The position numbers and the translations under genes were made by a program. This document shows positions 51,943-52,274 of a stretch of 64,000 bases of DNA, in pieces. The notes beneath the pieces are model-generated. The model ran no database searches. It had not been told where the DNA came from and saw nothing but the letters and a program-made list of their open reading frames with translations. Origin of the DNA: Escherichia coli. Lineage in GTDB: Bacteria; Pseudomonadota; Gammaproteobacteria; Enterobacterales; Enterobacteriaceae. The first letter of the stretch is position 1. Each line of letters starts with the position of its first letter. The stretch is from assembly GCF_003334305.1 (NCBI RefSeq), contig NZ_QOWS01000001.1; one strand, 5' to 3'.

Positions 51943-52274
51943 TCTATTGCACAACGAGGAAGCTAAAAGGCTTCCTTTGTTGATGCATGTCAACCACAAA
52001 TCTATCATTCCCCCGATATATGTTTATTTTATGTAAAATCAATTTATGTAAAAAGTCACATCATTGTAGTTAAAAAGGTTGAGTTAGATCGCAGAAACGG
52101 GTACATATAGCCCCGCAAACGTGACCACGCCCGCAGATATTACTTAAATCAGAGCCATAGAGGCCACTCAGGCGAGGCATCAATCTTTACGATCTGTATA
52201 AAGACGGATTGTTGATGATGTGTTAAAATTGATGTAAACAAATTGTGAAGTAAATGTACTTCCGGGGAAAATAA

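Follow-up and report, generated by a model that had tools for sequence, protein, structure and literature searches.

ATGTAAA copies upstream of Escherichia coli yejG are very probably direct-repeat elements of two conserved ArcA-P binding sites

The window analysed here is a stretch of 64,000 nucleotides of Escherichia coli DNA, in which rsuA (50029-50724), bcr (50752-51942) and yejG (52275-52619) follow one another on the + strand. The regulated gene, yejG, is convergent with yejF and encodes a protein of 114 aa from a GTG start. Between bcr and yejG lies a spacer of 332 bp (51943-52274), which was found in 5,426 of 5,426 complete E. coli genomes at an identity of at least 90%, and at 95% or more in all except one; among the records listed, none of 12 has an annotated feature under the spacer match. 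A Rfam scan of 51500-52800 revealed no known RNA element, its one match being a meaningless sub-threshold hit to a eukaryotic lncRNA family (E = 0.1). Inside the yejG coding region, a Cra ChIP-exo site has been reported, and another study predicted repression of yejG by Cra. To place published data on the window, U00096.2 coordinates were subtracted from 2,328,534. The start codon of yejG has the coordinate 2,278,237 in NC_000913.3, and we take the two K-12 genome versions, U00096.2 and NC_000913.3, to be offset by 1,978 bp here. The spacer differs from that of K-12 at three positions (52168, 52252 and 52258). As a check of the conversion, the published ArcA site that falls on 52020-52050 is identical to the window, and that on 52209-52252 is identical except at its final position, 52252, where this strain has a SNP.

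The heptamer ATGTAAA occurs three times exactly in the spacer, at 52031-37, 52046-52 and 52232-38, and twice with one mismatch (ATGTCAA, 51987; AAGTAAA, 52248); all five copies are on the + strand. Since only ~0.41 such copies are expected per 332 nt of one strand, the statement of the initial annotation that the motif is repeated four to five times is a fair description. The 52248 copy is strain-specific and reads AAGTGAA in K-12. The first two exact copies fall within TTTATGTAAAA, an 11-bp sequence that is repeated directly and without mismatch at a period of 15 bp (52028 and 52043). Over the whole window and both strands, ATGTAAA is as frequent as chance predicts (seven seen, 8.2 expected), and three of the seven fall in the spacer. 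Dinucleotide shuffling of the spacer produced some 7-mer at least three times in 419 of 5000 sequences (8.4%), and ATGTAAA itself at least three times in one of 5000. The repetition alone is mildly unusual and makes a modest signal.

At the upstream end of the spacer, an AGGAAGC-loop-GCTTCCT hairpin with a T-rich tail (51952-51982; -16.4 kcal/mol, z = -5.4) forms the bcr terminator, which was missed by a consensus terminator scan; the orthologs carry different G+C-rich stems at this position, followed by T runs. Adjoining the terminator, and separate from the ATGTAAA motif, is an FNR-type palindrome, TTGATgcatGTCAA (51980-51993). Most other aligned genera have a perfect TTGAT-N4-ATCAA there, in which the 4-bp centre alone varies; such a pattern points to binding by a protein and not to an RNA stem. 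The site predicted for FNR in K-12 at 2,276,541 (score 14.14) coincides with no ChIP-seq peak of FNR and overlaps a region enriched for Fis; the palindrome is strongly conserved across genera though unoccupied in K-12. Scanning with an approximate CRP matrix, built from 148 SELEX-derived, pattern-selected 16-mers, gave the best match of the spacer region at GGTGATCTATTGCACA (51938-51953, 11.8 bits), which spans the bcr stop codon and is one of two boxes predicted by the authors of the CRP SELEX study. Its GGTGATC is restricted in the alignment to Escherichia, several Citrobacter, Intestinirhabdus and Pseudenterobacter, so this box may be lineage-specific.

Primer extension identified two sigma70 starts of yejG, at U00096.2 2,276,299 (P1) and 2,276,419 (P2) (dPeak paper, PMC3798280). 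P1 (52221-52235, + strand) has an extended -10 element, TGtTAAAAT, at 52221-52229 and starts at 52235 (±1), within an ATGTAAA copy. P2 (52079-52115, + strand) is composed of TTGAGT (52079-84), a spacer of 17 bp, TACATA (52102-07) and a start G at 52115. The second cluster of motifs therefore lies on P1, from -9 to +25, and the first cluster is 60-88 bp upstream of the P2 start. A consensus promoter scan missed both promoters; its sole + strand match in the spacer was TTGATG-17-TATCAT at 51980-52008, whose hexamers are the same as those reported from RpoD SELEX. We therefore relied on the primer-extension data.

In 25 genera the core of P2 (52071-52111) is almost invariant, as is the 17-bp spacer within it, TAGATCnCAGAAACGGG; the -10 region, GGTACATATAGC, is non-canonical and precedes G+C-rich DNA. 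Within the spacer of P2 lies the CRP box predicted by Shimada, GTTGAGTTAGATCGCA, a CRP/FNR-like 16-mer that scores 10.2 bits here and 8-13 bits in the orthologs, and an RpoH-holoenzyme SELEX peak at 2,276,452 maps to window position 52082. The strength of this conservation suggests that P2 may be constrained by more than sigma70 recognition.

In a genome-scale study of E. coli K-12 by ChIP-chip and ChIP-seq, Park et al. (2013; PMC3798270, Tables S1-S6) reported two ArcA-P sites at yejG. The proximal site, yejG1, occupies 52209-52252 on the + strand (-26 to +18 of P1) and consists of four direct repeats, TTGTTGA (52209), GTGTTAA (52220), ATGTAAA (52232) and TTGTGAA (52243), in steps of 11, 12 and 11 bp, which in effect make up a tandem pair of full ArcA boxes with an offset of 23 bp. 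It was published as the full site TTGTTGATGATGTGTTAAAATTGATGTAAACAAATTGTGAAGTG at U00096.2 2276282-2276325, with the box ttgttgatgatgtgttaa at 18.8 bits and repeats at 2276322/311/299/288 of Ri 8.6/9.7/9.8/5.3 bits, and its anaerobic occupancy in vivo was detected by both ChIP-chip (2,276,269; 8.2) and ChIP-seq (2,276,279; 8.5) (PMC3798270). The upstream site, yejG2, occupies 52020-52050 on the + strand (-95 to -65 of P2) and has the repeats DR1 (ATGTTTA, 52020) and DR2 (ATGTAAA, 52031), in addition to a weak published DR3. It was listed as ATGTTTATTTTATGTAAAATCAATTTATGTA at 2276484-2276514 (box 17.6 bits; repeats 8/8.5/1.4 bits; published box cutoff 9 bits) and gave a weak peak, 1.9 at 2,276,488, in ChIP-seq alone (PMC3798270). 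In an arcA mutant yejG was 11.9-fold up, and it stands in the list of 85 directly regulated operons as repressed, with the site -26 to +18 (PMC3798270). Similarly, yejG was 5.8-fold up in an arcA mutant of Salmonella Typhimurium, where the ArcA box predicted upstream of the gene, GTCAATGATGTGTTA (PMC3848847), is the ortholog of DR1-DR2.

By the match of coordinates with these sites, the copy at 52031 is DR2 of yejG2 and the copy at 52232 is DR3 of yejG1, which carries the P1 start. We consider it very probable that the ATGTAAA copies belong, as direct-repeat elements, to two ArcA-P binding sites which repress yejG when oxygen is scarce. The promoters named as footprinted in the part of Park et al. 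used here are astC, trxC, icdA, acs, putP, paaA, phoH and dctA, and not yejG (PMC3798270); the repeat-by-repeat occupancy of the two yejG sites by ArcA-P is a prediction. A caveat concerns the 12-bp step from DR2 to DR3 of yejG1, which is like that of putP, where the same part of the paper describes a DR3 at 12 bp from DR2 as unprotected by ArcA-P (PMC3798270); yet DR3 and DR4 of yejG1 form a complete, high-scoring box.

Downstream of the P1 start, the 5'-UTR (52240-52274) contains the conserved AATTGTGAAGT and CTTCCGGGGAA. Here GAAGT (52247-51) can pair with ACTTC (52258-62), beside a GGGG(A) Shine-Dalgarno element, which hints at a possible small hairpin for translation control. As AATTGTGAAG is also ArcA DR4, the conservation at this position may come from DR4 alone.

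Further analysis with an ArcA matrix assigned the same positions. The 18-bp log-odds matrix was derived from 114 published boxes with yejG left out, and both strands of the window (128 kb) were scanned. It scored 19.3 bits at 52209, 19.3 bits at 52232 and 18.3 bits at 52020, compared to a range of 9.7-22.4 bits and a median of 16.3 bits for the training boxes. Three of the five best matches in the 64-kb window fall in the bcr-yejG spacer, and the next match reaches 13.7 bits. The top two are the published rcsD (19192-19209, 21.9 bits) and mqo (25621-25638, 21.2 bits) sites, both of which belong to the training set; together with the two yejG sites, they bring the window to at least four ArcA-bound regions. 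At yejG, the spacer possesses what defines an ArcA box, namely two TGTTA-like repeats whose centres are 11 bp apart and a score like those of bound sites. Moreover, ATGTAAA ranks fourth in frequency among the 7-mers of the 228 training repeats; the ArcA direct repeat often takes this form.

These data change the unit of repetition. The initial annotation took ATGTAAA itself as the motif, whereas the real unit is the ArcA direct repeat, with a TGTTA consensus and a spacing of 11 bp; the ArcA sites also contain TTGTTGA, GTGTTAA, TTGTGAA and ATGTTTA, which it did not group with ATGTAAA, and among the copies that it did group, the one at 52046 is out of ArcA phase and the one at 52248 is a strain-specific variant. 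It had further proposed that the copies bind a regulator of yejG still to be named. They are indeed transcription factor-binding elements that control yejG, but the regulator is a known one, ArcA (Park et al. 2013).

For comparison across species, one genome per species was taken, which yielded 80 loci with bcr-yejG synteny that represent over 20 genera of enterobacteria, including Escherichia, Salmonella, Citrobacter, Kluyvera, Klebsiella, Kosakonia, Enterobacter, Leclercia and Mangrovibacter. The motif is kept in the orthologous regions, so a lack of conservation does not refute the observation: in nearly all 80 loci TGTAAA occurs twice with a 15-bp offset, near -245 and -230 relative to the start codon, and in many it occurs a third time near -42. 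An alignment of 25 genera revealed that the motifs are held in discrete conserved blocks, and that 52113-52200 varies freely. In 73 of the 80 loci, at least two of the three ArcA boxes have kept both their place and their score, and most loci retain the full set of three; the two boxes of yejG1 are retained across the orthologs, always 23 bp apart. At the position of yejG2, a box of the form wTGTTTnnnnnATGTAAA with a score of at least 9.7 bits is present in 77 of the 80 loci, and one of the three exceptions is a locus too short upstream. In this site TGTTT and ATGTAAAA are invariant in the 25 genera, and the invariant TGTTT (52021) and TGTAA (52032) lie 11 bp apart, as in ArcA sites.

Within each repeat, conservation in the 25-genus alignment is highest on TGT. 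The substitutions found in orthologs, ATGTGAA, TTGTAAA, GTGTAAA and TTGTCAA, stay within the degeneracy of the ArcA repeat, and ATGTAAA itself is not preserved; this drift fits an ArcA site, not a factor dedicated to ATGTAAA. Taken together, both ArcA sites and the two-box proximal layout with its fixed 23-bp offset are conserved across Enterobacteriaceae, which argues for an ancient origin of the redox control of yejG and for selection acting on it.

The mapped promoters give these sites a plausible mode of action. According to the part of Park et al. used here, reduction of the quinone pool leads to ArcA-P, its dimers bind 11-bp-phased repeats, and most ArcA-P sites overlap sigma70 promoter elements (PMC3798270). 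Such an overlap is found at yejG1, where DR2 (GTGTTAA, 52220-26) overlaps the extended -10 of P1 and DR3 contains its start at 52235; yejG2 has no overlap with a mapped core promoter. When oxygen is scarce, ArcA-P, the product of the ArcB/ArcA redox two-component system, would bind as dimers to the tandem TGTTA-like repeats. On yejG1 it would cover the extended -10, the start and the first 18 nt of P1, and the bound protein would exclude sigma70 RNA polymerase from P1, by which yejG would be repressed. With DR2 on the extended -10 and DR3 on +1, promoter occlusion at P1 is the natural inference. Data from the same laboratory as Park et al. are consistent with such a loss of polymerase: sigma70 ChIP-seq occupancy at yejG was 1462 aerobically versus 56 anaerobically, and the aerobic/anaerobic transcript ratio of yejG was 4.0 (PMC3688515). 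The upstream site would help to shut P2, either by blocking activation from upstream or by extending the occupancy of ArcA, and this contribution of yejG2 is proposed with less certainty.

ArcA-ArcA looping between the two sites was considered and rejected. Their separation of 189 bp corresponds to 18.0 helical turns in E. coli, and the helical phase is lost in the orthologs, where the spacing is 172 bp in Kluyvera, 192 bp in Klebsiella, 194-195 bp in Kosakonia and 200 bp in Citrobacter amalonaticus; in the Enterobacter asburiae group it is ~55 bp shorter, with the upstream box near -205 instead of -260. Since the spacing varies, conservation lends looping no support. In loci L065 and L067-L069 of the E. 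asburiae group, the shortening is a deletion of ~55 bp from the freely varying part between P2 and P1, and locus L031 has a deletion of ~110 bp in the same interval. Both ArcA sites are kept in all of these loci, from which it follows that the distance between the sites is unconstrained.

The copy at 52046 does not fit the ArcA repeats so readily. Its distance from DR2 is 15 bp, and it is absent from the published ArcA repeats; no in-phase ArcA partner exists at ±11 bp, and no 18-bp ArcA box above 5 bits occurs there. TAGTTAA at 52067 was rejected as a partner, being 21 bp away and poorly conserved. The copy lies in the conserved block TGTAAAAAGTCAC, with its bases 84-100% conserved in the 25 genera. 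It is also contained in a putative CRP-like 16-mer, TATGTAAAAAGTCACA (52045-52060, + strand), the centre of which, 52052.5, is at -62.5 of P2. For this copy only, we tentatively propose that it may form the left half of a CRP site, T(A/G)TGT-N6-TCACA, for class I activation of P2; the adjacent yejG2 ArcA site would then counteract activation of P2 by cAMP-CRP.

Several features are in line with a CRP site at 52045-52060. Among the 25 genera GTCAC shows little or no variation, and the left arm reads either TATGT or TGTGT. The centre at -62.5 from the P2 start at 52115 agrees, within mapping error, with the canonical -61.5 and is compatible with activation. With the approximate matrix, the E. 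coli site scores 7.8 bits, which is in the lowest quartile of the training set (lower quartile 8.2 bits, median 11.2 bits), because the second-position G of the TGTGA arm is replaced by A; 24 of the 78 loci scored reach 9.2-11.6 bits with a left arm of NGTGT, which favors the site, and the Klebsiella orthologs, at ~0-2 bits, speak against it. Genomic SELEX with CRP recovered the yejG-bcr spacer, at a resolution too coarse to choose among the three candidate boxes, but its authors predicted the other two, at 51938-53 and 52078-93, which score higher (11.8 and 10.2 bits). In the literature we found neither CRP ChIP at this site nor crp-dependent expression of yejG. Alternatively, the 52046 copy could be an irregular ArcA element or the target of another factor.

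More broadly, the 52046 copy, the near-invariant block of ~93 bp that runs from 52019 to 52111 through P2, and the FNR-type palindrome upstream might represent an extra layer of yejG control, an idea that we regard as possible but rather doubtful. Such a layer could be class I activation by CRP opposed by yejG2, or a further factor on the spacer of P2. If true, it would tie yejG to both carbon and redox status.

It is very unlikely that a distinct regulator recognizes ATGTAAA itself at all copies, as the initial annotation supposed. Three exact copies in the same orientation within 332 bp, and the conservation of the 52046 copy outside the ArcA phasing, speak for such a factor, but two of the three exact copies already are ArcA repeats occupied in vivo, and the 7-mer drifts among orthologs, with the neighbouring TGTTT, GTGTTAA and TTGTGAA conserved equally or better. 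Moreover, the copies are spaced by 15 bp and 186 bp, which suggests no common architecture. A functionless repetition by chance in AT-rich promoter DNA is extremely improbable. The frequency with which shuffled spacers hold a threefold 7-mer (8.4%) would permit it, but occupancy by ChIP has been published (PMC3798270), and across more than 20 genera the motifs show little or no change, in contrast to the freely varying 52113-52200 of the same spacer. The conservation and the ChIP data have already refuted the chance reading.

TyrR recognizes TGTAAA-N6-TTTACA and CpxR GTAAA-N5-GTAAA, and another known factor of this kind, with a TGTAAA- or GTAAA-like half-site, has a negligible probability: half-site resemblance alone favors it, but neither architecture is found in the spacer, where the best TyrR palindrome has 3 mismatches in 12 and TTTACA is absent from the E. 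coli and nearly all orthologous spacers, and the best 10-bp-phased CpxR pair has 2 mismatches in 10, with actual GTAAA spacings of 15 and 16 bp. Two further candidates were discarded. The IHF consensus is WATCAANNNNTTR, and the sequence AAATCAATTTATG lacks the TTR arm and has an ATCAA that is unconserved in the orthologs. A start-stop mini-ORF (ATG-TAA) has no Shine-Dalgarno element, and both mapped starts are downstream of the first two copies; the repeats TTGTTGA, GTGTTAA and ATGTTTA are conserved though they are not start-stop sequences.

Membership of the ATGTAAA copies in the two ArcA-P sites is therefore retained as the preferred reading. The sites at yejG, their regulator ArcA and the direction of control, repression, are already known from the genome-scale ChIP tables published in 2013 (PMC3798270), and as a discovery the result matters little. 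To the published occupancy, ArcA-dependent repression, two starts and anaerobic loss of sigma70, the present analysis adds the match of coordinates, independent matrix scores and the family-wide conservation of position and score. It also explains ATGTAAA as a common variant of the ArcA repeat, and singles out the conserved element at 52046-52060 beside the ArcA sites. Strict aerobic expression under the control of ArcA, and possibly of CRP, is a clue to the role of yejG, a gene of unknown function.

Compared to other multi-repeat ArcA-P sites of Park et al., such as astC with four direct repeats, icdA and acs with three, and mqo and rcsD in this window, the yejG sites share the 18-bp boxes with repeats 11 bp centre to centre, the extra repeats that extend a site to ~44 bp, the overlap of the -10 and the start, anaerobic repression and derepression in an arcA mutant. 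Listed in the tables of that study, the yejG sites show no difference in kind. Their particulars are the 12-bp step between DR2 and DR3, which creates two complete boxes 23 bp apart, the second, weaker site 189 bp upstream and outside the mapped core promoters, and the repeat-like ATGTAAA that lies 15 bp out of phase. The same architecture of tandem direct repeats one helical turn apart is found in the sites of the OmpR/PhoB family, of which ArcA is a member according to the part of Park et al. used here; the yejG repeats match the ArcA matrix specifically, ArcA being the one matrix of the family that was scored. Compared to class I CRP promoters such as lac P1 (-61.5), the putative CRP site is alike in having the conserved T(A/G)TGTAAAAAGTCACA at -62.5 of P2, within a spacer that CRP binds in genomic SELEX, and unlike them in that the E. 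coli candidate is weak (7.8 bits) and the SELEX authors proposed other boxes.
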